This document shows positions 2,637 to 61,811 of a stretch of DNA of 64,000 nt, piece by piece. The stretch is from Candidatus Falkowbacteria bacterium (GTDB lineage: Bacteria; Patescibacteriota; Patescibacteriia; XYB2-FULL-38-15): assembly GCA_016214745.1 (NCBI GenBank), contig JACRNW010000006.1, positions 13,367 through 77,366 of the forward strand, written 5' to 3'. Position 1 is the stretch's first letter; the number at the start of each line of letters is the position of its first letter. A model generated the notes under the pieces. That model was not told the origin of the DNA, did no database searches, and saw only the letters and a program-made list of their open reading frames with translations. The position numbers and the translations under genes are program-made.

Positions 2637-2747
2637 CTACAAATTACAAATTTTGATACAAATATACAAATTCTTGCTTACATGTTGATCTAATAAAAAT
2701 ATACTTTATCGCTATTTGTATATTTGTAAATGATTTGTAATTTGTAG
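2637..2747. repeat. Palindromic intergenic element family P1, copy 1 (inverted relative to copies 2 and 4)
   Basis: The ends ctacaaattacaaat and atttgtaatttgtag are reverse complements. The internal sequence matches copies at 4763-4867, 34918-35026 and 58649-58772. Confidence 0.8.
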
Positions 2748-3196: not shown

Positions 3197-3199
3197 AGA

Positions 3200-3285
3200 T
3201 TTAGTTAAATAGTTAATCAGTTAAATGGTTAAGTAGTTTTGTCGAAGGCAGTCACCGATTAACTGAGTAACTGATTAGCCAACTA
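3200..3285. repeat. Palindromic intergenic element family P2 (gttaatcagtt...aactgattaac), copy 1
   Basis: Inverted arms agttaaatagttaatcagttaaatggttaag / cgattaactgagtaactgattagccaactatt. Related copies at 8956-9083 and 61178-61286. Confidence 0.7.
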
Positions 3286-3700: not shown

Positions 3701-3707
3701 AGAACTC

Positions 3708-3785
3708 GATGCGAATTTACGAATTAATGCGAATGAAACGAATAATTCGTATTATTCGTATACATTCGTATATTTGTATCGCTAC
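3708..3785. repeat. Cargo-less imperfect palindrome related to the termini of the GxxExxY cassette at 22285-22650
   Basis: gcgaatttacgaattaatgcgaatgaaacgaata + attcgtattattcgtatacattcgtata. The reverse complement of the left arm (tattcgtttcattcgcattaattcgtaaatt) nearly equals 22635-22665 (tattcgtatcattcgcattaattcgtaaatt). Confidence 0.6.
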
Positions 3786-3787
3786 AT

Positions 3788-4333: not shown

Positions 4334-4334
4334 A

Positions 4335-4380
4335 AATAAAATTCAAAAGTCAAAATTCAAAATTCAAAAATTTTGGATTA
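4335..4380. repeat. AT-rich simple hairpin repeat (aaattcaaaa units), family P4
   Basis: aaaattcaaaagtcaaaattcaaaattcaaaaattttggatt. Similar low-complexity hairpins at 28741-28885 and 31021-31095. Confidence 0.5.
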
Positions 4381-4381
4381 G

Positions 4382-4576
4382 TTATTTTATGTACTTTTCC
4401 AAAAGCCAGGTGAAAAGAAAGTCCAGTGCTCCCAAAAAAGCGGCCACGCCCAAACTTATGCCAATCACAACCAGGGTGTGGTTTATTGTTTCCCGTCTTG
4501 TCGGCCAGACGACTTTTTTCAATTCCTGATACGACTCCCGAAGGTAATTTGTTAATTTGTTTTCAGCAAGTGTCAT
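4382..4576 (-). CDS. secE: preprotein translocase subunit SecE
   Basis: 64 aa with a single C-terminal TM, immediately upstream of nusG in the conserved secE-nusG-rplK-rplA order. Confidence 0.6.
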   Translation of the reverse strand: MTLAENKLTNYLRESYQELKKVVWPTRRETINHTLVVIGISLGVAAFLGALDFLFTWLLEKYIK

Positions 4577-4762
4577 TTATTTTTTCTGCGTTTTTCGGCG
4601 TTATTATCGGCGTTTTTCTGCGGGAATGATAATTTATAGAAGCAGATTTACGCGGATCAAAACGCGGATTTACGCGGAAGATTTTAAGGTTTTTAAAACA
4701 GCCCTGGGGGCTATTTAGGATTAGTATAGCACAGGTTAAAAATAGCGCAAGATCCACTCTGC

Positions 4763-4867
4763 GAATTACAAATTATTTACAAATTTACAAATAACGGAAA
4801 AATGAGTTTTACCAAATTAACGTGTTAGCAAGAATTTGTATATTTGTACCGAATTTGTAATTTGTAG
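4763..4867. repeat. Palindromic intergenic element family P1, copy 2
   Basis: gaattacaaattatttacaaatttacaaataacgg...aattaacgtgttagcaagaatttgtatatttgtaccgaatttgtaatttgtag, directly after the gyrB stop. Confidence 0.8.
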
Positions 4868-6956: not shown

Positions 6957-7043
6957 CTAATATTTATTAAGTTATTATAGCATAGAATATTTTATAAAAC
7001 AAGGGGACAAAAGCCCCTCTAAAAGAAGTTTTATAGATAAACT

Positions 7044-7097
7044 TGCCCAGCTTTCGCTGGGAATCCAGAAAAAACGGAATCCCGACGAAAGTCGGGC
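7044..7097. repeat. GC-rich double-hairpin unit G2 (cccagc-UUUC-gctggg ... cccgac-GAAA-gtcggg)
   Basis: gcccagctttcgctgggaatccagaaaaaacggaatcccgacgaaagtcggg. An almost identical unit and a half lie at 31891-31970. Confidence 0.7.
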
Positions 7098-7173
7098 AAT
7101 CTGCAGCCGTTCGCCCAGATTTTATTTTTTTGCTATAATGAAGATGTAATTTACAAATCTTGTTTTTAAAGAT

Positions 7174-8955: not shown

Positions 8956-9083
8956 AGTCAGTTAATCTGTTAATCAGTTGATTAGTTAATCAGTTTTTGG
9001 TTTTGTTGGGTAGTTTTTGTTTGTGGCAATTTAGTCGCCATTTTTTTAACTGATTAACTATTTAACCATTTAACTATTTAACC
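8956..9083. repeat. Palindromic intergenic element family P2, copy 2
   Basis: gtcagttaatctgttaatcagttgattagttaatcagtt...ttaactgattaactatttaaccatttaactatttaacc. Confidence 0.7.
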
Positions 9084-9086
9084 AAA

Positions 9087-10181: not shown

Positions 10182-10302
10182 ATTAGAAAATAGAAAGTAG
10201 AAAATAGAATTTAGAATCGGCCACTTGACGATTTCGGTGTTTGCTGCTAACATCTAATTATCGTATTTTTTAAAATAATTAATTCATAAATAGAGAATTC
10301 TT

Positions 10303-12128: not shown

Positions 12129-12139
12129 TTTTAATTTCC

Positions 12140-12212
12140 GTAATTACCCAGTTACCCAATTACTTAATTACAATCTCGTAATTAAGTAACTAATAGTAAC
12201 TAAGTAATTAAA
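12140..12212. repeat. Palindromic element family P3 (taattaccc...gtaactaagtaattaa), copy 1
   Basis: gtaattacccagttacccaattacttaattacaatctcgtaattaagtaactaatagtaactaagtaattaa. Related copies at 36234-36335 and 54313-54358. Confidence 0.65.
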
Positions 12213-12337: not shown

Positions 12338-13234
12338 TTATATTTTAAAAATAACAACTCTATTTCTTCCCGCCAGGTCTTGTTTAATCTTTATTTTCGC
12401 GGCGGGAAAACGGCGCTTGATTAGTTTTGTGATAGATTTTTTTTGCGATGGGTCAATTTCGAAGAAACATGAAATATGAAACTTAAAACTTGAAACTTGA
12501 AAATTTTTGATTTGTTTTAGGAGTTGGCGGTAGTAATTGAGGCCGTCAGAACCGCCGTCCAGAGCTTGCTTCGGTTCATATTTTTTAATTTCCGGTTGAG
12601 TATGTCGCCACTGCGTGGTAGTGAGGTATGGCAAATTGGCAACGATTATTAAGTTGGAGTAGCGCCCGTAAGGGCGCGCTTGTGACGCAGCCTCACGGCT
12701 GCTATTCCGCGATGGAATAGTCATCAATGGCTCAAGCAAATTGCCGTGTAGCAAAGTAACGGCGACTTTATGATGAAGAATATTTTTTCGCGCTACTTTT
12801 AACGCCGCCGCCGAAATTTCTGTGGCGAAGATTTTTGCTTTGGGAAGATGGTGGGCGAGTGTTATGGCGATGGCGCCGCTTCCGGTTCCGACATCAATGA
12901 TTGCAGTTGGATTTTTATCTATTGCGGCTTCAACTAATGTTTCCGTTTCGGGGCGGGGGATTAGAACATTTTTATCAACAAAAAAATCCAGGCCGTAAAA
13001 ATATTTGTGGTCCGTGAGGTAGGCGATTGGTTCATGCCGTACTCGCCGAGCAATAAGTTTTTTAAATTTAGCCAGTTGTCCCGCGGCCAATTTTTTTTTA
13101 GGATGCGCGTACAAAAATTCTTTTGGTTTTTTTGTAACAAAAGCTAAAAGAATCTCTGCATCCAAGGCAGGGGAGGAAATTTTATTTTTTTGTAAAATTT
13201 TTATTGCCTCAATGAGCGATTGCTTGATAGTCAT
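12338..13234 (-). CDS. prmC: release factor glutamine methyltransferase PrmC/HemK, carrying a roughly 20-aa in-frame GC-rich insert
   Basis: DVGTGSGAIAITLA (SAM motif I) and IVANLPYL (NPPY-type motif). I place the start at MTIKQSL because the upstream in-frame codons lie inside the terminator hairpin of the neighbouring islet gene. The insert is MTIPSRNSSREAASQARPYGRYS, encoded by hairpin-forming GC-rich DNA at 12655-12728. Confidence 0.75.
   Translation of the reverse strand: MTIKQSLIEAIKILQKNKISSPALDAEILLAFVTKKPKEFLYAHPKKKLAAGQLAKFKKLIARRVRHEPIAYLTDHKYFYGLDFFVDKNVLIPRPETETLVEAAIDKNPTAIIDVGTGSGAIAITLAHHLPKAKIFATEISAAALKVARKNILHHKVAVTLLHGNLLEPLMTIPSRNSSREAASQARPYGRYSNLIIVANLPYLTTTQWRHTQPEIKKYEPKQALDGGSDGLNYYRQLLKQIKNFQVSSFKFHISCFFEIDPSQKKSITKLIKRRFPAAKIKIKQDLAGRNRVVIFKI
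12655..12728. repeat. In-frame GC-rich palindromic mini-insert inside prmC
   Basis: Hairpins agcgccc-gtaa-gggcgcg and ctattcc-gcgat-ggaatag lie between the conserved HemK motifs, where homologs have about 7 residues. Confidence 0.55.
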
Positions 13235-14122: not shown

Positions 14123-14335
14123 CTACTGGTCGGTGCCGTGAAGGCGGTATTCGCGCGCCTTCCGCCTGGCTCCTTCGGCTTGGCGGCGTTCCTCCTCGTC
14201 GTCGGGGATGAACCCGTCGGCGCGGCGATGATTCGGCCGACGCCTCTCGATCACGAACGGCCCTCCGTCCGGAATGATGCGAGATCCGTCGCGCGAGAGA
14301 GGCGTGCCATCGTGCATGAAAACTCCCTTTGACAT
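14123..14335 (-). CDS. small basic GC-rich protein (about 70 aa)
   Basis: The SD GAGGAGG lies 6 nt upstream of ATG: MSKGVFMHDGTPLSRDGSRIIPDGGPFVIERRRPNHRRADGFIPDDEEERRQAEGARRKAREYRLHGTDQ. Confidence 0.3.
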   Translation of the reverse strand: MSKGVFMHDGTPLSRDGSRIIPDGGPFVIERRRPNHRRADGFIPDDEEERRQAEGARRKAREYRLHGTDQ

Positions 14336-14500
14336 CCCTGTCCTCCTCAACCTTCCCTACGATCTCTATTGACAACTCGTCCCGTCCATCGGGCCGAGAT
14401 GTAGGGCCACCTTCCTTGCGTTTTGACGCGTGTCAACGGCGCAAAGCCACCCTGTTTGTTGATTTCATAATATTACAAAAAGATTAATTTGTCAACCCCC

Positions 14501-14529
14501 TTGACAAATTTTTTAATTATGATAGAGTA
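14501..14529 (+). promoter_or_regulatory. sigma70-type promoter (TTGACA, 16-nt spacer, TGaTAGAGT extended -10) overlapped by the inverted repeat ttgtcaa-ccccc-ttgacaa
   Basis: Read directly from the sequence. No protein-coding ORF follows it. Confidence 0.4.
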
Positions 14530-14534
14530 TTACG

Positions 14535-14855
14535 GCAAGGGTAATGGGGAGTCCTGTTCGGCTGATGCCAGCAGCGCACTGGCGTCATGGGTAATCTTTT
14601 TTCATCCCAAATCTAGAGCCCCTGGTTGGCGAACAGCGCGTTGATGCGCGGCCGACCTTGAGGCAAAGGACCCACGGGGTGGTCAGCAGGAACCCGGTCC
14701 GCGAGCTGCCCGTGAAGCAGACGTGGACTGAAATCTCCCCCGCGTTTTCGATCCTCCAAATCCGCTTTTAGCGGGTAAGGAGGTCACCCTTCTTTGCACA
14801 CCGCTACGTTTCGCGTTGTGCCTGTCGGTCGAACACCTGTTCGGCCGACTCTTTT
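14535..14855 (+). ncRNA. Candidate structured GC-rich non-coding RNA of about 320 nt (identity unknown)
   Basis: A promoter at 14501-14529, no ORF longer than 10 codons, and a strong terminator at 14818-14855 (gtcggtcgaacacctgttcggccgac + tctttttt). About 60% GC in an AT-rich genome. I could not match tmRNA, RNase P or SRP signatures by eye. Confidence 0.3.
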
Positions 14856-14880
14856 TTATATCAAAATTTATATCAAAAAA

Positions 14881-15083
14881 CCGGCCTTGCGGCCAGTCAA
14901 TTTTCCCCTCTTAAGGTAAGAGGGGCTGGGCCTGCCCGCAACGCCAGCAACCTGCCCGCTAATGCAAGCATAGCGTTGCAGGCGGGGCTGGCTTGCGTGG
15001 CGGGCGGGGGCGTTATGAGCGGCGATTTTAAAATCCACGGTTCATAACGCCACCCAACCCCCCCTTATCTTAAGGGGAGGGGT
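14881..15083. repeat. GC-rich composite element G1, copy X (flanked by ccccttaagg-type mini-hairpins)
   Basis: The roughly 130-bp core (cccctcttaaggtaagaggggctgggcctgcccgcaacgccagcaacctgcccgctaatgcaagcatagcgttgcaggcggggctggcttgcgtggcgggcgggggcgttatga...) is nearly identical to the reverse complement of 33070-33200. The last hairpin encodes the prfA C-terminus and stop. Confidence 0.8.
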
Positions 15084-16122: not shown

Positions 16123-16221
16123 AAATTATTTAAACATCTAAACATTTAAACATTTTAACATAAATTCTAACATAAAAACATGATAACAAAAACGTTACCA
16201 TGTTTTATGCAAATTGAATAG

Positions 16222-17885: not shown

Positions 17886-17961
17886 TTTTTATAAAAACAT
17901 ATAAACATCTAAACATACAAACAATTGTTTAAATGTTTAAATGTTTGAATATTTAAATATT

Positions 17962-20390: not shown

Positions 20391-20424
20391 CAAGTATTAA
20401 GTATAAAGTAGCAAGTATAAAAGT

Positions 20425-20498: not shown

Positions 20499-21122
20499 AT
20501 GTTTTACCGCGCAATGAGAATTATTTTTTGGTCGGCTTTTTGGTCGGCCTTTGTTATGGCCGCCTTTTTCGGATGGCAAAAAGACGTGTTTGGCGTCGTA
20601 ACTTTTCTTTTGGGGGCCGTGGGTTTATTATTTTTATTTTTATTTCAAAAATCAAAATTATTTTTAAAATATTATAACCCCTCGTTCGGCGACACCCTTC
20701 TCGGGTTTAGCGGCATAATTTTCTTAATTGGCGATCTTGGAAATTTATACCTTTATGATAATTGGGCTTCTTATTGGTTTGGGTTTGACACCGTGGCTCA
20801 TTTTGCCATTCCTGCGCTTTTTATGATTGTGGGTGCTATGCTCTATGAACTTTTGCGGATAAGACGTGGCGTACCAAAAGCAGTTGAGGTAATTTTTGTT
20901 TGCGCTGTAACGGTCGTAGCATTTTCTTTTTTGTGGGAATTTTTTGAAAAACAAAGCGACGTTTGGTGGAGTACAAAAATGTTTTGGAATCCAACTCGAC
21001 CGATTGCCGTTGATACGGCCAGTGATTTAATCGCGGATTTTTACGGCGTGTTTGTGGGCGGCATTTTAATTTTTAAAAATTGGATTGGCTGGAATAAAAA
21101 ATGGCTGAAGAAAAACAGTTAA
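20499..21122 (+). CDS. hypothetical polytopic membrane protein
   Basis: 207-aa hydrophobic ORF. Confidence 0.4.
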   Translation: MFYRAMRIIFWSAFWSAFVMAAFFGWQKDVFGVVTFLLGAVGLLFLFLFQKSKLFLKYYNPSFGDTLLGFSGIIFLIGDLGNLYLYDNWASYWFGFDTVAHFAIPALFMIVGAMLYELLRIRRGVPKAVEVIFVCAVTVVAFSFLWEFFEKQSDVWWSTKMFWNPTRPIAVDTASDLIADFYGVFVGGILIFKNWIGWNKKWLKKNS

Positions 21123-21212
21123 CATTTAACAGTTAACAATTAACAGGCGATGACGGGTGCGGGTTTATGCCCGTTCTTTTTTATGTTATAATGTTTTAAT
21201 GTTAAAAATTTT

Positions 21213-28740: not shown

Positions 28741-28885
28741 TCTAAAATTACAAATCCTAAATAAATTCAAAACTCAAATATCCAAATTCAAAACTTTTTG
28801 GATTTAGATATTTGATATTATTTGGAATTTGGTGCTTTGAATTTGGAATTTTAAAATTTTGCATTTTGATTTTTGATGTTTGATT
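28741..28885. repeat. AT-rich simple hairpin repeat cluster (family P4)
   Basis: caaatatccaaattcaaaac / tttgaatttggaattt inverted low-complexity units. Confidence 0.5.
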
Positions 28886-31020: not shown

Positions 31021-31095
31021 ATCAAAACCAATATCCAATATCAAATATCAAATATCTTTTGGCGGATATTGGCTATTCGCTATTAGATATTAGAA
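31021..31095. repeat. AT-rich simple hairpin repeat (atatcaaatatc units)
   Basis: ccaatatccaatatcaaatatcaaatatc...gatattggctattcgctattagatatt inverted. Confidence 0.45.
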
Positions 31096-31108
31096 TAATT
31101 GTAAACGA

Positions 31109-31867: not shown

Positions 31868-31890
31868 GATATTTTGTTTGATATTTCAAC

Positions 31891-31970
31891 CGGAATCCCG
31901 ACGAAAGTCGGAAAATTGCCCAGCTTTCGCTGGGAGTCCAGAAAAAACGGAATCCCGACGAAAGTCGGGT
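31891..31970. repeat. GC-rich double-hairpin unit G2, 1.5 copies
   Basis: ggaatcccgacgaaagtcgg...gcccagctttcgctgggagtccagaaaaaacggaatcccgacgaaagtcggg. Compare 7044-7097. Confidence 0.7.
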
Positions 31971-32027
31971 TTTTGATTTCTCCCCTTAAGGTAAGGGGAG
32001 ATTAAGAGGGGTGAAATGGGGTTGACA

Positions 32028-32869: not shown

Positions 32870-33018
32870 TGTCCTTGGACCCTGGGTAACTCGGCCCTTC
32901 AAACCGGCCTGGTCGCTCGGACCCTCGGACACTTTGTCCCTTGGCCCCACTTCAAATCCAATGCTTCACAAAGCAAAGGAAATGAAGCGGGGCCGTTTTT
33001 TTATTTAAGATTTTAGAT

Positions 33019-33207
33019 TTTCTCCCCTTAAGGTAAGGGGAGACTAAGAGGAGTTATGAACGGTGGATTTTAGTGCTACGGTTCATAACGCCCCCGCCCG
33101 CCACGCAAGCCAGCCCCGCCTGCAACGCTATGCTTGCATTAGCGGGCAGGTTGCTGGCGTTGCGGGCAGGCCCAGCCCCTCTTATCTTAAGAGGGGAGCG
33201 TTATACT
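33019..33207. repeat. GC-rich composite element G1, copy Y (inverted relative to copy X)
   Basis: The reverse complement of 33070-33200 matches 14908-15040 almost base for base. Confidence 0.8.
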
Positions 33208-33265
33208 GATTTTTTTATTTATCTTTTTATGATATAATGAATAAAATTAGTGAAGAGAATAAATT

Positions 33266-34558: not shown

Positions 34559-34655
34559 AGTTAAAAGTTAAAAATTAAAAGTGCAAAGTTACAGTTTAAA
34601 GTTTAAAGGTTTTTTCAATAACTTTTAACTTTTCACTTTACACTTCTAACTTGTT

Positions 34656-34917: not shown

Positions 34918-35026
34918 CTACAAATTACGAATTCGGTACAAATGTACAAATTTTTTCTAACACGTTAATTTAAAAAAACGTAATTTGTCGTTATTTGTAT
35001 ATTTGTAAATAATTTGTAATTTGTAG
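34918..35026. repeat. Palindromic intergenic element family P1, copy 3 (inverted relative to copies 2 and 4)
   Basis: ctacaaattacgaattcggtacaaatgtacaaattttttctaacacgttaatt...ttatttgtatatttgtaaataatttgtaatttgtag. Confidence 0.8.
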
Positions 35027-35032
35027 TAGCAT

Positions 35033-36253
35033 ATGAAATTAAAAACCATAGATGAAATTAAAAATTTAAAAGGCAAGAAAGTTTTAGTCAGAGTTGATTT
35101 TAATGTTCCGCTAAAAAAATCCGGAGCGAAAATTGTCGTGGCCGAGGATACGAGAATTAGAGCAGCTCTGCCCACGATTAAATATCTCCTAGAACACGGC
35201 GCGAAAGTTATTTTGATGAGCCATCTGGGCGATCCGGGCGGAAAAGTTAAAGCGTCGCTCGGTTTAAAACCGGTTGGCGCGACTCTCGCGAAAATTTTAG
35301 CCATGAAAGGCGCGGCGCCGACAGATTGGGTCGGCAAAAAGGGCTTGGGAAAAATTGACGCAATGCGAAACGGCGAGATAATGCTTTTGGAAAATTTGCG
35401 TTTTCATCCGGGTGAAGAAAAAAATGACGTAAAATTTGCCGCGGGACTTGCAAGTTTGGCGGATATTTATGTGAATGATGCTTTTGCCGCCGCTCATCGG
35501 GCGCACGCTTCAATTACCGGCGTGCCAAAATTTTTGCCAAGTTTCGCCGGGCTATTAATGGAAAAAGAAATCAATGTTTTAGGCGGACTGCTCTCAAAAC
35601 CAAAAAGGCCATTTGTGGCTTTAATCGGCGGGGCAAAAATTTCCACGAAAATAAGAGTGGTAGAAAATTTGCTTAAAAAAGTTAATTTTCTTTTACTCGG
35701 CGGAGCCTTGGTAAATAATTTTTTCGCCGCGGCCGGTTATGGCATCGGCGCTTCAGTTTTTGAAAAAAAAGAATTAAAGACAGCAAAGAAATTTTTAAAA
35801 AATAAAAAAATAGTTTTGCCGGTTGATTTTGTGGTCGGCGATTTTAAAGGTAAAAAGGCCTGGGTCGCGCCAGTGGCGCCAAGGCGCAGTGTGCTTTGTA
35901 AGAAGCCATATGCACTTCTAGATATCGGGCCCGAGACAATAAAAAAATATTCCGGAATTGTCAGAAAATCACAAACTATTGTTTGGAACGGTCCGATGGG
36001 ATATTTTGAAATTAAAAAATACAGCCACGGAACAGTCGCGCTGGGCCAGTTAATCGCCGCCAGGTCAAAAGGAAAAGTTTTTGGCGTGGCCGGCGGGGGA
36101 GAGACAATTGAAGCGCTCGGGAAAACGGGCATGGCGGAATACATTGATCATATTTCTACCGGCGGCGGAGCGATGCTTGAATTTTTGGAAGGGAAAATGC
36201 TGCCGGGGATTAAACCATTATTAAAAAATAGTAATAATTACCTAATTACCTAA
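35033..36253 (+). CDS. pgk: phosphoglycerate kinase
   Basis: 406 aa with RVDFNVP and the C-terminal GGGA motif region. The last six codons (NNYLIT) lie inside P3 copy 2. Confidence 0.9.
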   Translation: MKLKTIDEIKNLKGKKVLVRVDFNVPLKKSGAKIVVAEDTRIRAALPTIKYLLEHGAKVILMSHLGDPGGKVKASLGLKPVGATLAKILAMKGAAPTDWVGKKGLGKIDAMRNGEIMLLENLRFHPGEEKNDVKFAAGLASLADIYVNDAFAAAHRAHASITGVPKFLPSFAGLLMEKEINVLGGLLSKPKRPFVALIGGAKISTKIRVVENLLKKVNFLLLGGALVNNFFAAAGYGIGASVFEKKELKTAKKFLKNKKIVLPVDFVVGDFKGKKAWVAPVAPRRSVLCKKPYALLDIGPETIKKYSGIVRKSQTIVWNGPMGYFEIKKYSHGTVALGQLIAARSKGKVFGVAGGGETIEALGKTGMAEYIDHISTGGGAMLEFLEGKMLPGIKPLLKNSNNYLIT

Positions 36254-36335
36254 TTACCTAATTACCAAACCATCAAAATATAAATTTAGATTGAAGAATG
36301 GGGTAACTAAGTAATTGATAGTAATTAAGTAATAA
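36234..36335. repeat. Palindromic element family P3, copy 2
   Basis: aattacctaattacctaattaccaaacc...ggggtaactaagtaattgatagtaattaagtaat. Confidence 0.65.
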
Positions 36336-36341
36336 AAATCT

Positions 36342-43820: not shown

Positions 43821-43860
43821 TTATTAAGTTCATAAGTTTTTAAGTTTATAAATTTTTAAA

Positions 43861-53980: not shown

Positions 53981-54316
53981 ATGGCACTTCTATTTCGTTG
54001 GTTAATTTACGCGGTGGCGATTATGCTTTTAACTTACATTGTGCCGGGCATTTCCGTAAAGAATTTCTATTCAGCGCTTTTAGCCGCGCTTGTTTTGGGT
54101 CTTGTGAACGCCGTAATTCGGCCGCTTATAATTTTACTGACTCTGCCGGTAAATATTCTGACTCTCGGTCTTTTTACGCTCGTGATTAACGCTCTGATGT
54201 TATGGTTTGTCGCTTCAATCGTTAAAGGTTTTGATGTTAAGAATTTTGTAGCTGCCTTTTTGGGCGCCTTGGTTTTATGGGCAGTCGGTTGGCTGACGAA
54301 CGCGTTGACGAAGTAA
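53981..54316 (+). CDS. DUF360-like small membrane protein
   Basis: About 111 aa with 3-4 TM. Start placed at MALLFRW. Confidence 0.5.
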   Translation: MALLFRWLIYAVAIMLLTYIVPGISVKNFYSALLAALVLGLVNAVIRPLIILLTLPVNILTLGLFTLVINALMLWFVASIVKGFDVKNFVAAFLGALVLWAVGWLTNALTK

Positions 54317-54358
54317 TTTGTAATTTGTAATTGGGTAACTAAGTAATTAAGTAATTAA
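54313..54358. repeat. Palindromic element family P3, copy 3 (short)
   Basis: gtaatttgtaatttgtaattgggtaactaagtaattaagtaattaa. Confidence 0.55.
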
Positions 54359-54362
54359 AAAT

Positions 54363-58052: not shown

Positions 58053-58646
58053 ATGAAAAAGAAGCTCGCAATATTTTTCGTTATAATTTTTTTGGCCAGC
58101 GCCGCCGCGATGTTTTATTGGTATATTGGCGGGATGAAAGAGGCATCGGCCGATTTAGAAGAGGCGAAGCAAGAAGCAAAAAAAGTTGAAGCGAAAGAAA
58201 CGACTGTAAAAGTATTTTTTGGCAATAAAAAAATGAATCAAAAGCAGGCTGATTGTAAGGTTGTTTTTCCGGTTGAGAGAATAGTTGATAATGATTTAAT
58301 TGTAAAAAGGCGGGCGTTTGAAGAAGTGCTTATCGGCCCAACCGCCTCGGAAGCGGCAGAAGGTTATTATTCGGCTTTTCCCAATAAAGACGAAGTGATA
58401 AAATATCGCGAAAGAATAAAACAAGAAACAGGCCAGGCTCCGTACGACGGCGATGAAATAAAAATAAGGAGCGTTAAAATTATGATTGGGATGGCTTACG
58501 TGGATCTTTCTCCGGAAATATTTTCTTACGATAAAGATAACTGCCGGGCCGAGATGATCCGAGAGCAACTTTCCCAAACCGCGAAACAATTTTCAAAAGT
58601 CGGCGGCGCGATTATCACCGTCGGTGGCGTGGAGAACGCGCTTTAA
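58053..58646 (+). CDS. hypothetical secreted/membrane-anchored protein
   Basis: 197-aa ORF with an N-terminal TM. Confidence 0.45.
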   Translation: MKKKLAIFFVIIFLASAAAMFYWYIGGMKEASADLEEAKQEAKKVEAKETTVKVFFGNKKMNQKQADCKVVFPVERIVDNDLIVKRRAFEEVLIGPTASEAAEGYYSAFPNKDEVIKYRERIKQETGQAPYDGDEIKIRSVKIMIGMAYVDLSPEIFSYDKDNCRAEMIREQLSQTAKQFSKVGGAIITVGGVENAL

Positions 58647-58648
58647 AT

Positions 58649-58772
58649 CTACAAATTACAACTCTACAAATTACAAATCATTTACAAATATACAAATAAC
58701 AGTGAAGTGTATTTTACAAAATTAACGTGTTAGTAAAAATTTGTATATTTGTACCGAATTTGTAATTTGTAG
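58649..58772. repeat. Palindromic intergenic element family P1, copy 4
   Basis: ctacaaattacaactctacaaattacaaatcatttacaaatatacaaataacag...aattaacgtgttagtaaaaatttgtatatttgtaccgaatttgtaatttgtag. Confidence 0.8.
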
Positions 58773-58785
58773 AATAGTAGAATGT

Positions 58786-58983
58786 ATGAAGAAATATTCA
58801 TGTGCACGTTGCGGAAAGGGGAGAACGCGCTACCGCACTCCGTCGCCTTTTAAAGTAATGGCGGCCGAACGGGCTAAAAGAGATAAAATATATGCCCCGT
58901 TAGAAGTTCAGCAACGTGCTTCTCAAGGCAACGCACAAAAGGCGAAGCCGACTTACGTCTCTCGTTACGTGGATAAAAGATAA
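58786..58983 (+). CDS. small basic protein with a single CxxC
   Basis: MKKYSCARCGKGRTRY... of 65 aa. Start placed after the P1 repeat. Confidence 0.3.
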   Translation: MKKYSCARCGKGRTRYRTPSPFKVMAAERAKRDKIYAPLEVQQRASQGNAQKAKPTYVSRYVDKR

Positions 58984-59010
58984 AACAATCTATAAACTTC
59001 TAACGGGGTA

Positions 59011-59148
59011 TGGGAAAAAGAAAATTTAGCCGCGGTGTGAAAAAATTTATTCGCGGGGAGAAAGCGCGTTTTCGCCGGGAAACCGCGGATTTGGGCGAGC
59101 AAAAAAGATTAATTGATGAACTCTACAAAAAATTTTCAAAAATATGAA
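59011..59148 (+). CDS. 45-aa basic peptide, translationally coupled (ATGA overlap) to the downstream radical SAM gene
   Basis: MGKRKFSRGVKKFIRGEKARFRRETADLGEQKRLIDELYKKFSKI. Its TGA stop overlaps the ATG at 59144. Below the ORF-track length cut-off. Confidence 0.25.
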
Positions 59149-60983: not shown

Positions 60984-61177
60984 GGAATTTGTTTTGTGGA
61001 TAAAATTAGCTTGACAGGTTTTTCTGGGTATTGTAGTATAAATTAATTGACAAGCGAATGAGAGAAATGAATTTATTCATTTCCGAGTGAGCGCAGTCAA
61101 TATAGGGTAAAACCCTCTATTACCAAAGACAGCAGGCGTTTGCCCTAAAAGGCGACTCAATTTCCTGCCGAGGTAAA

Positions 61178-61286
61178 CTAGTTGATCAGTTAAATAGTTA
61201 ATTGGTTAAATAGTTATTGTCTCGTGGTAATTGCCACGATTTTTTGTATCCCGATTAACTAATCAACTGATTAACCAATTAACTGA
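61178..61286. repeat. Palindromic intergenic element family P2, copy 3
   Basis: agttgatcagttaaatagttaattggttaaatagtta...ttaactaatcaactgattaaccaattaactga. Confidence 0.7.
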
Positions 61287-61291
61287 CATAT

Positions 61292-61811
61292 ATGCCTAAA
61301 ACTAAAGAACAAAAGAAACAAACTCTCGCGGAACTTGAAGATAATTTCAAGAAAAGCAAAACGGCGGTTTTTGTTAATTTCCAGGGTTTGAATGTTAAAG
61401 ACACGACTGCCCTTCGTAATCTCTTGCGTAAAGAAAAAATTGAATATGAGGTGGCGAAAAAAACACTTTTGAAACTTGCCGTGGAGAAAATCGGCCAAGC
61501 TGGCGTTGATCCAAAAAGTTTTAATGGTAATATTGCCGTGGCCTTTGGCTTTGAGGATGAAGTGACGCCGGCTAAAGTGTTGAATCACGACCCACGATGC
61601 TTTAAAAATTATCGGCGGAACGCTTGAAAAGAAATTTATTGACGCCGCTAAAGTTATTGAGCTGGCGCAGATTCCTGGCAGACAGGAACTCTTGGCGAAA
61701 TTAGTTGGCAGTATCAATTCGCCGGTTTCCGGTTTTGTAAACGTCTTGGCCGGAAACTTGCGTGGTTTGGTTCAGGTGTTAAAAGCGATTTCAGAAAAAA
61801 AACCAGTTTAA
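61292..61811 (+). pseudogene. rplJ: 50S ribosomal protein L10 with an apparent +1 frameshift near 61586
   Basis: Frame 1 gives residues 1-98 (...EDEVTPAKVLN) and then reads HDPRCFKNYRRNA*. Skipping c61586 continues as TTHDALKIIGGTLEKKFIDAAKVIELAQIPGRQELLAKLVGSINSPVSGFVNVLAGNLRGLVQVLKAISEKKPV to the stop at 61809-61811, which is the expected L10 C-terminal half. Confidence 0.6.

Follow-up and report, generated by a model that had tools for sequence, protein, structure and literature searches.

A 64,000-nucleotide (nt) stretch of Candidatus Falkowbacteria bacterium (contig JACRNW010000006.1 of assembly GCA_016214745.1; this whole stretch is hereafter the window) contains four dispersed copies, spread over 56 kb, of a non-coding imperfect palindrome of 109–124 nt that is here called P1. 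All four copies occupy spacers between co-directional genes, as judged from Pfam scans and direct reading, and every copy begins 2–6 nt past the stop codon of the upstream gene. The distance from the end of P1 to the start or leader of the next gene is 6–52 nt in three copies; in window spacers, the next gene often follows within a few bases and has no obvious Shine-Dalgarno sequence. The window has a composition of 42.8% G+C, its sole Rfam match is an L10 leader, and no tRNA genes occur in it. The copies and their immediate surroundings are as follows:

2637–2747, + strand: P1 copy 1, type-A centre (left arm 2637–2671, centre 2672–2713, right arm 2714–2747); genes on the − strand, DUF5671 gene stop codon upstream at 2753 (2753–2755), L1 leader/rplA start at 2584 downstream
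2629–2636: left 8-bp direct repeat GTTATTAA beside copy 1, possible target-site duplication
2749–2756: right 8-bp direct repeat GTTATTAA beside copy 1, overlapping the DUF5671 stop codon (2753–2755)
4759–4867, − strand: P1 copy 2, type-B centre; genes on the − strand, 4 nt past the gyrB stop codon (4872) and ending 8 nt short of the secE −35 hexamer
4745–4750 and 4723–4728, − strand: secE promoter, TTGCGC and TATACT separated by N16
34918–35026, + strand: P1 copy 3, type-B centre (arms 34918–34951 and 34993–35026, centre 34952–34992); genes on the + strand, starting 4 nt past the hypA stop codon and ending 6 nt before the pgk ATG
58664–58772, − strand: P1 copy 4, core of 109 nt, type-B centre; genes on the + strand, GerMN-domain gene stop at 58646, small open reading frame (ORF) with its ATG at 58786, 13 nt off, then a radical-SAM gene
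58649–58663, − strand: tandem duplicate of the outer 15 nt of the copy 4 arm (CTACAAATTACAACT; Tandem Repeats Finder: period 15, 1.9 copies, 100% matches)

Copies and anatomy of P1

The four copies stand where the initial annotation had placed them, with small corrections to the boundaries. Copies 1 and 3 keep their coordinates, copy 2 starts at 4759 and not at 4763, and the span 58649–58772 given for copy 4 resolves into the core and the 15-nt duplicate. The mean column identity of the four copies is 79% with the centre included (MAFFT alignment), and not the value below 60% at which they were to be regarded as unrelated AT-rich sequence; identity is 86% once three orthologous or related copies from other genomes join the alignment (seven copies). 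Motif counts point the same way, with 11 matches to TTTGTAATTTGTAG where 1.1 were expected and 10 to ATTTGTATATTTGTA where 0.27 were expected, numbers that none of the dinucleotide-preserving shuffles attained. The alignment also bears out the reverse-complement relationship of copies 1 and 3 to copies 2 and 4. With respect to the gene upstream, two copies point one way and two the other.

Each P1 unit consists of two 34-nt inverted arms around an asymmetric, non-palindromic centre of 41–43 nt that exists in two subtypes. An arm is made of four direct TACAAAT words at a spacing of 8-11-8 with GTAG at the end, and can be divided into an outer half-arm (CTACAAATTACAAAT) and an inner half-arm (TACAAATATACAAAT) separated by an asymmetric spacer of 4–5 nt (TCGG on one side, AATR on the other). 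Copy 2 has a degenerate outer terminus (CTGCGAATTAC). One strand of the arm is free of G (CTACAAATTACAAATnnnnTACAAATATACAAAT), so that an arm cannot pair with itself, unlike a repetitive extragenic palindromic (REP) unit. The centre motif aattaacgtgttag, originally described as common to all copies, is found in copies 2, 3 and 4, and copy 1 has the diverged form cttacatgttgatc. Approximately 20 nt of the centre differ between loci and are conserved at an orthologous locus.

No ORF is conserved across the copies, and a mini-ORF in the centre (MSFTKLTC, copies 2 and 4) was dropped because its conservation does not extend to copies 1 and 3. Readings of the centre as an integron attC site, a parS site or an FNR/CRP box were rejected on inspection, given the lack of a fixed orientation, the core genes on either side and a centre that is not palindromic. 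A guide or antisense role for the centre was likewise set aside, as its segments match nothing in the window beyond chance (12-mer matches occur in 27% of shuffles).

Folding potential

The long hairpin proposed for RNA copies of the element is recovered by folding. Both strands of every copy fold into an interrupted, AU-rich hairpin of ~30 bp, with energies of −22.5 to −40.6 kcal/mol and z-scores of −3.0 to −7.5. In the seven-copy alignment, 97% of the 210 arm pair cells are complementary, 24 of the 30 arm pairs are invariant and no compensatory changes are present; the conserved feature of the arms is the sequence itself. A strand preference read from G-U versus A-C mismatches was discarded, the mismatches being split 2:2 relative to the direction of transcription.

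The suggestion that the element is a terminator or attenuator fares less well. Only 4 of the 30 stem pairs are G-C, so that a G+C-rich stem is missing, no copy is followed by a T-run, and the consensus scan identified no terminator-like site with P1 as its stem-loop; the single terminator-like site that touches copy 2 (4763–4746) extends into the flank of the secE promoter. What stands of the suggestion is a plausible role as a 3′ hairpin, given the G+C-rich hairpin that other relatives have at exactly the gyrB site (see below). P1 has no match in Rfam 15 other than sub-threshold chance matches to models of miRNA precursors.

Filled and empty sites in related genomes

Homologues of GyrB, PGK and the GerMN-domain protein (86–91% identity) led to contigs of approximately seven Patescibacteria genomes with the same gene order. 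Whether relatives have empty sites at the same loci, a question raised with the initial annotation, has a clean answer for three of the four copies (copies 1, 2 and 3), and the sites of copies 2 and 4 are also filled in relatives. Copies have thus been added to short AT-rich spacers right behind stop codons, at sites that are filled or empty depending on the genome.

The gyrB site is the most varied. P1 is present in L060, with 95% identity to copy 2 and an identical centre, and in L063/L064, with 81% identity to copy 2. L074 has an empty site, with 17 nt from the stop codon to the secE −35 hexamer; L061 has a 106-amino acid ORF there; and in L072 and L073 the site holds a G+C-rich hairpin (CCCCTCGCC...GGCGAGGGG) that abuts the secE −35 hexamer. 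In a neighbour-joining tree of GyrB, the genomes with P1 at gyrB form one clade, which fits one old insertion. Two further features were observed in these genomes. In L060, the end of gyrB (its last ~57 nt) is present a second time as an orphan copy that follows the gyrB stop codon and precedes P1 (12044–12149), which suggests imprecise recombination or gene replacement at the junction. The contig of L064 ends inside P1 (3250) and that of L063 ends 20 nt beyond it (12195), which fits breaks of the assembly at a repeat that has multiple copies in that genome; P1-type repeats may help explain such breaks.

At the rplA site, P1 is absent from L072, L073 and L074, in which 11–15 nt separate the DUF5671 stop codon from the conserved GTGGGAG motif in the L1 leader. 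Copy 1 in the window is flanked by the 8-bp direct repeat listed above (P of about 5e-4 per copy), and its flanks total 14 nt. At the pgk site, L075, L076 and L077 are without P1 and have spacers of 12–14 nt, a size to which the flanks of copy 3 also sum. HypA is 85 amino acids long in all three of these genomes, which refutes the idea that insertion of copy 3 truncated hypA. L075 shares a contig with L063, and L075 and L076 probably come from the clade that has P1 at gyrB.

The GerMN site differs in another respect. The closest relative, L092 (from the assembly of L060), has P1 at the identical position in the opposite orientation, and this copy is 93.7% identical to window copy 1 versus 85% to copy 4. 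One orthologous copy has therefore changed orientation between two genomes by a flip or a replacement, and because the two orientations also differ in centre subtype, replacement fits better than a simple flip.

Rate of change

Across 10 genes compared between the window and the closest genome, four-fold degenerate sites are 61–84% identical (median about 66%), while the P1 copies are 85–95% identical to those of the closest genome, centres included. P1 copies persist across species-level divergence in this way, and P1 changes far more slowly than the neutral sites do, which a purely parasitic, decaying element would not show.

Conservation similar to that of P1 is seen in the secE promoter and leader beside copy 2. 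The region upstream of secE (window 4582–4758, − strand; L060 12259–12450; L074 12030–12215) is 90–93% conserved versus ~65% at four-fold sites. Its elements, in order, are an extended −10 promoter (TTGCGC...TGCTATACT), a small hairpin that has a T-run (GCCCCCAGGGCTGTTTT) and repeats of the CCGCGTAAAT type, and the region may be a regulatory leader for secE-nusG.

The arm outside the window

An exact-pattern scan with ATTTGTAAATNATTTGTAAT across 185,579 species genomes (one genome per species) returned 59 loci, mostly chance 20-mers. The full 34-nt arm, with its 8-11-8 spacing and GTAG end, occurs in about a dozen Patescibacteria-type bins that include Falkowbacteria, Moraniibacteriota, Saccharibacteria and some other labels. 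In most of these bins the arm is solitary and lies 3–7 nt upstream of a start codon, with ATTTGTA...GTAG pointing to the ATG; the genes behind it include serS (twice), a release-factor gene and a thioredoxin gene, among others. One exception is L006. Its single arm, considered as a feature upstream of an RNA gene, proved to have a weak T-box match on one side and trpB on the other, and its orientation is reversed.

Full palindromes are present in L040 and L014, where they fill the stop-to-start gap among housekeeping genes and have centres that are unrelated or absent. The two P1-like palindromes of L040 were considered as the ends of a composite transposon, an option dismissed because only housekeeping genes lie between them. 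The P1 centre itself was found at no locus of the ATTTGTAAATNATTTGTAAT scan. The arm is therefore a module common to several lineages, and the P1 centre has been seen in this clade only. Two metagenome scans for P1 yielded nothing or chance hits only, a viral scan yielded chance hits only, and BLAST of P1 against plasmid and phage collections gave no match.

Hairpins built of words in other spacers

P1 is not the only hairpin in the spacers of the window. Many spacers contain arrays of 7–8-nt AT-rich words that start directly after stop codons and are often mirrored into hairpins; examples of such words are AGTTAAAT, GTAATTAA, TAAACATN, TACGAAT, AAGTATNN and TAATTACC. Spacers with word arrays include:

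3197–3274, 3701–3787, 4334–4385, 8956–9086, 10182–10216, 12129–12211
16123–16221, 17886–17960, 20391–20421, 21114–21146, 28771–28884, 31021–31108
34559–34655, 36235–36341, 43821–43860, 54311–54362, 61172–61286

The autocorrelation of intergenic sequence peaks at lags of 7–8, a peak that persists without P1. A fold z-score below −3 is found in 18 of 31 tandem spacers, 4 of 6 convergent spacers and 1 of 6 divergent spacers, and the hairpins therefore go with the 3′ ends of genes. Orthologous spacers often retain the hairpin with a different set of words, as in the pgk-to-SIMPL spacer of four genomes; in other orthologous spacers it expands, shrinks or is missing. What sets P1 apart from these word-array hairpins is that it is dispersed and has a conserved centre. 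P1 is one sequence-conserved family within this lineage's habit of placing word-built hairpins in most co-directional spacers.

Two side observations concern these arrays. Four relatives (L061, L072, L073 and L074) share a conserved 66–69 nt upstream of rplK in the nusG-rplK spacer, and the corresponding window spacer (3701–3787) has a hairpin of TACGAAT words instead, with only an ATGTAGC motif kept. At 36230–36253, the pgk ORF has lost the usual stop codon and reads into an array of TAATTACC words; it is 8 codons longer than its homologues (406 versus 398 amino acids).

Discussion

With a probability of roughly 0.55, P1 is a non-autonomous dispersed palindromic repeat of the Falkowbacteria lineage that lands after stop codons and is kept there, probably as an intercistronic 3′ hairpin. 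The dispersed homologues, the filled and empty sites, the possible duplication at copy 1, the flip or replacement at the GerMN site and the type-A copies at non-orthologous sites together identify P1 as a copied, insertion-polymorphic repeat, and the occurrence of a near-identical type-A copy at non-orthologous sites of two genomes requires copying between loci. The strong conservation, along with the G+C-rich hairpins at the gyrB site of relatives, suggests that inserted copies are retained on account of their hairpin, as a structure of use at the end of the upstream cistron.

A mechanism of this kind would involve a trans-acting, sequence-specific enzyme that recognizes the TACAAAT arms and moves or inverts P1, usually without target duplication, in the manner of single-strand HUH/RAYT-type or recombinase-type elements. 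Once inserted, P1 would be transcribed within a polycistronic mRNA, and its retention could be due to the ~30-bp interrupted hairpin acting as an intercistronic 3′ structure, whether as an exonuclease barrier, an RNase III-type processing site or an insulator before the next promoter.

Several observations weigh against this interpretation. Protein-family scans, which covered 36 of the ~70 ORFs of the window, identified no transposase or recombinase gene among them, and none lies next to the P1-like elements of L040. A flanking duplication is seen in 1 of 7 or 8 copies, the others having 3 nt or less, so that copy 1 is the only candidate for the target-site duplication raised with the initial annotation; even there it is ambiguous, since the flanks sum to the size of the empty spacer (11–15 nt). 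A selfish element should decay, and the strong conservation of P1 fits a host function better than mobility alone. On the RNA side, the stability of the folds has no consistent bias to the transcribed strand, and at copies 2 and 4 the sense strand folds less stably; with no covariation in the arms, an RNA structure is neither supported nor refuted by that approach and is not demonstrated by it.

A host origin without mobility is rather unlikely overall. P1 would then be a cis-regulatory module of the host (a conserved bidirectional stop, an insulator, a processing hairpin or a protein-binding array), which recombination copied a few times and selection maintains at specific operon junctions. 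A conservation far above neutral and an exact placement (2–6 nt after stop codons and, at copies 3 and 4, 6–13 nt ahead of the following start) speak for such a module, as do arms conserved as sequence without covariation, the G+C-rich hairpins that hold the gyrB site in L072 and L073, and single arms elsewhere that sit 3–7 nt upstream of starts, mostly in one orientation. However, the same junctions of close relatives work without P1 in spacers of 11–17 nt, P1 has no terminator features, and the copying between loci that the type-A copies need and the 8-bp flanking duplication at copy 1 both speak for insertion.

A broader and more doubtful proposal is that P1 may represent the sequence-conserved tip of an undescribed Patescibacteria system, in which case it would be a programmable or invertible intercistronic control element and not a plain miniature inverted-repeat transposable element (MITE). 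The position of the hairpin would be conserved between genomes while its words are swapped, expanded or replaced, and the TACAAAT array, which distant Patescibacteria-type bins have in common with its 8-11-8 spacing, could be bound by a conserved protein responsible for copying, flipping or reading the elements.

An invertible promoter switch is improbable. The arms would serve as recombination sites, and the centre and inner arm would form a one-way promoter (TTAACG-N16-TATATT) flipped toward or away from the downstream gene. In the consensus scan, copies 2 and 4 have a weak TTAACG-16-TATATT motif and copy 1 has TCAACA-16-TATATT, and the number of promoter-like sites is no higher than in shuffled sequence. 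The putative promoter of copies 2 and 3 is directed antisense into gyrB or hypA, and a switch of which half the copies would drive antisense transcription is disfavoured. Both orientations are present in the window, and the copy at the GerMN site is oppositely oriented in two related genomes with identical boundaries; yet these two orientations differ in centre subtype (85% versus 94% identity to copy 1), and no invertase gene was identified among the ORFs scanned.

TIGR-Tas systems are common in Patescibacteria, where stem-loop TIGR units with variable palindromic stems occur (PMC12045711; bioRxiv 10.64898/2026.09.09.750476), which raises the very improbable case that P1 encodes a small structured RNA whose guide-like loop is variable, for example a dispersed stem-loop tigRNA. 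The phylum is the same, a loop lies between palindromic stems in both, and P1 has a long stem and the ~20 nt of its centre that vary by locus and are conserved at an orthologous locus. TIGR units are arranged in tandem around a tas (Nop-domain) gene, with box C/D motifs that flank two spacers of 8–12 nt (PMC12045711; bioRxiv 10.64898/2026.09.09.750476). P1 differs in that its copies are solitary among housekeeping genes over 56 kb and form no tandem arrays around a tas gene; the ORFs scanned include no tas gene and no Nop-domain match, no box C/D motifs were seen by eye, and the centre has no above-chance matches elsewhere in the window and no Rfam family. Finally, the notion that the four copies are unrelated AT-rich low-complexity sequences alike by chance, for which arms built of a repeated 7–8-nt word and the commonness of word arrays in the spacers of this genome might be cited, is refuted by the alignments, given 79–86% identity over ~110 nt including the non-repetitive centre, a conserved 8-11-8 word spacing, orthologous copies in relatives that are 81–95% identical and motif counts above every shuffle.

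If P1 is indeed a retained, mobile repeat, it has implications for a group whose genomes are very small and tightly packed, and for which the literature searched gave no description of dispersed palindromic repeats. An element of ~110 nt can be traced through insertion, constrained retention and orientation change at the junctions of core genes (gyrB/secE, rplA and pgk). Should the hairpin act on mRNA, P1 would be part of the organization of operon expression in these organisms, and should a dedicated enzyme recognize TACAAAT arrays, it would constitute a new mobilization or inversion system in an uncultured phylum.

Comparison with known repeat families

P1 is closest to the REPINs, the Correia elements and ERIC, and is a member of none of these families. 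The Correia elements of Neisseria (CREE/NEMIS) provide the closest functional analogy. They are ~100–155 bp long, have long terminal inverted repeats, occur in both orientations, are inserted next to genes and co-transcribed with them, and are insertion-polymorphic between strains; their hairpins are RNase III targets, and promoter elements can be present at their ends. Correia elements possess an IHF site and generate a TA target duplication, whereas P1 is without TA duplication, belongs to a different host phylum, has arms that are word arrays and is not known to be related to them in sequence. The ERIC/IRU elements of enterobacteria are imperfect palindromes of ~127 bp with a highly conserved sequence that occur in transcribed intergenic regions in either orientation, and whose presence at orthologous sites varies between species. 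Their sequence and hosts are unrelated to those of P1, and ERIC lacks word-array arms.

The initial suggestion that P1 is a MITE holds for the most part. Like a classical DDE-derived MITE, P1 is non-coding and short (under ~600 bp), with terminal inverted repeats (the 34-nt arms), multiple dispersed copies in both orientations, filled and empty sites (the latter at copies 1–3) and one 8-bp flanking repeat. Unlike such elements, it has no target duplications at the other 6 or 7 copies, no cognate transposase was found among the ORFs scanned, and once inserted it is conserved far more strongly than decaying MITEs would be. No parent insertion sequence that shares the ends of P1 is known.

GTAG, with which the P1 arm ends, is the conserved tetranucleotide of classical REPs. 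REPINs are REP doublets that form hairpins and are mobilized by RAYT transposases (Bertels & Rainey 2011, PMC3116915; PMC3337134); these inverted doublets of 71 or 110 bp are long-lived and usually without target duplication (PMC3116915). P1 resembles them in consisting of two inverted units and a spacer, in size (109–111 nt versus 71 and 110 bp), in its extragenic position and long-hairpin potential, in the existence of single units (‘singlets’) and in its long vertical persistence without regular target duplication. The differences lie in the unit and in number. A REP unit is a short G+C-rich palindrome, whereas the P1 arm is AT-rich, not self-complementary and made of four direct TACAAAT words; and REPINs number hundreds per genome, compared to the 4 copies of P1 in the 64-kb window, among whose scanned ORFs no RAYT (Y1 HUH transposase) gene was found.

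Other repeats and features of the window

A second palindromic family, with the ends TATGCCCCGTTAGAAGT...ACTTCTAACGGGGTATGCC, is represented in the window (58891–59013), in L060 (~12640–12790) and in L072 (~12390–12526). In L060 and L072 it is an insertion in the secE-nusG spacer, with TATGCC duplicated at the start of nusG; the window, L061 and L074 have an empty secE-nusG site. The predicted small ORF 58786–58983 is overlapped in its 3′ half by the window copy of the repeat and may therefore not be a real gene.

The L10 leader (RF00557, 47.7 bits) lies at 61105–61255 on the + strand and overlaps word arrays. The longest ORF just after it (61271–61717) runs on the − strand and matches no family, and L092 has an L10 gene of 175 amino acids; a plus-strand rplJ in the window seems to be disrupted or mis-called. 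At 14480–14600, a strong promoter-like site (TTGACAAATTTTTTAATTATGATAGAGT) is followed by a ~70-nt G+C-rich stretch and a T-run in a long non-coding region, which may be an unannotated small RNA or riboswitch, although Rfam has no match at gathering score for it.

Two further sets of repeats are G+C-rich. Small hairpins (GGAATCCCGACGAAAGTCGGG and TTGCCCAGCTTTCGCTGGGA) recur at two distant intergenic sites (7039–7100 and 31888–31973) with 97% identity over 58 nt. An inverted repeat pair of 176 nt (14904–15079 and 33022–33197), 90% complementary and 18 kb apart, sits in unusually long G+C-rich non-coding stretches (14142–15069 and 32870–33265), which also share shorter repeats such as TTTCTCCCCTTAAGGTAAGGGGAGA at 31977 and 33019.

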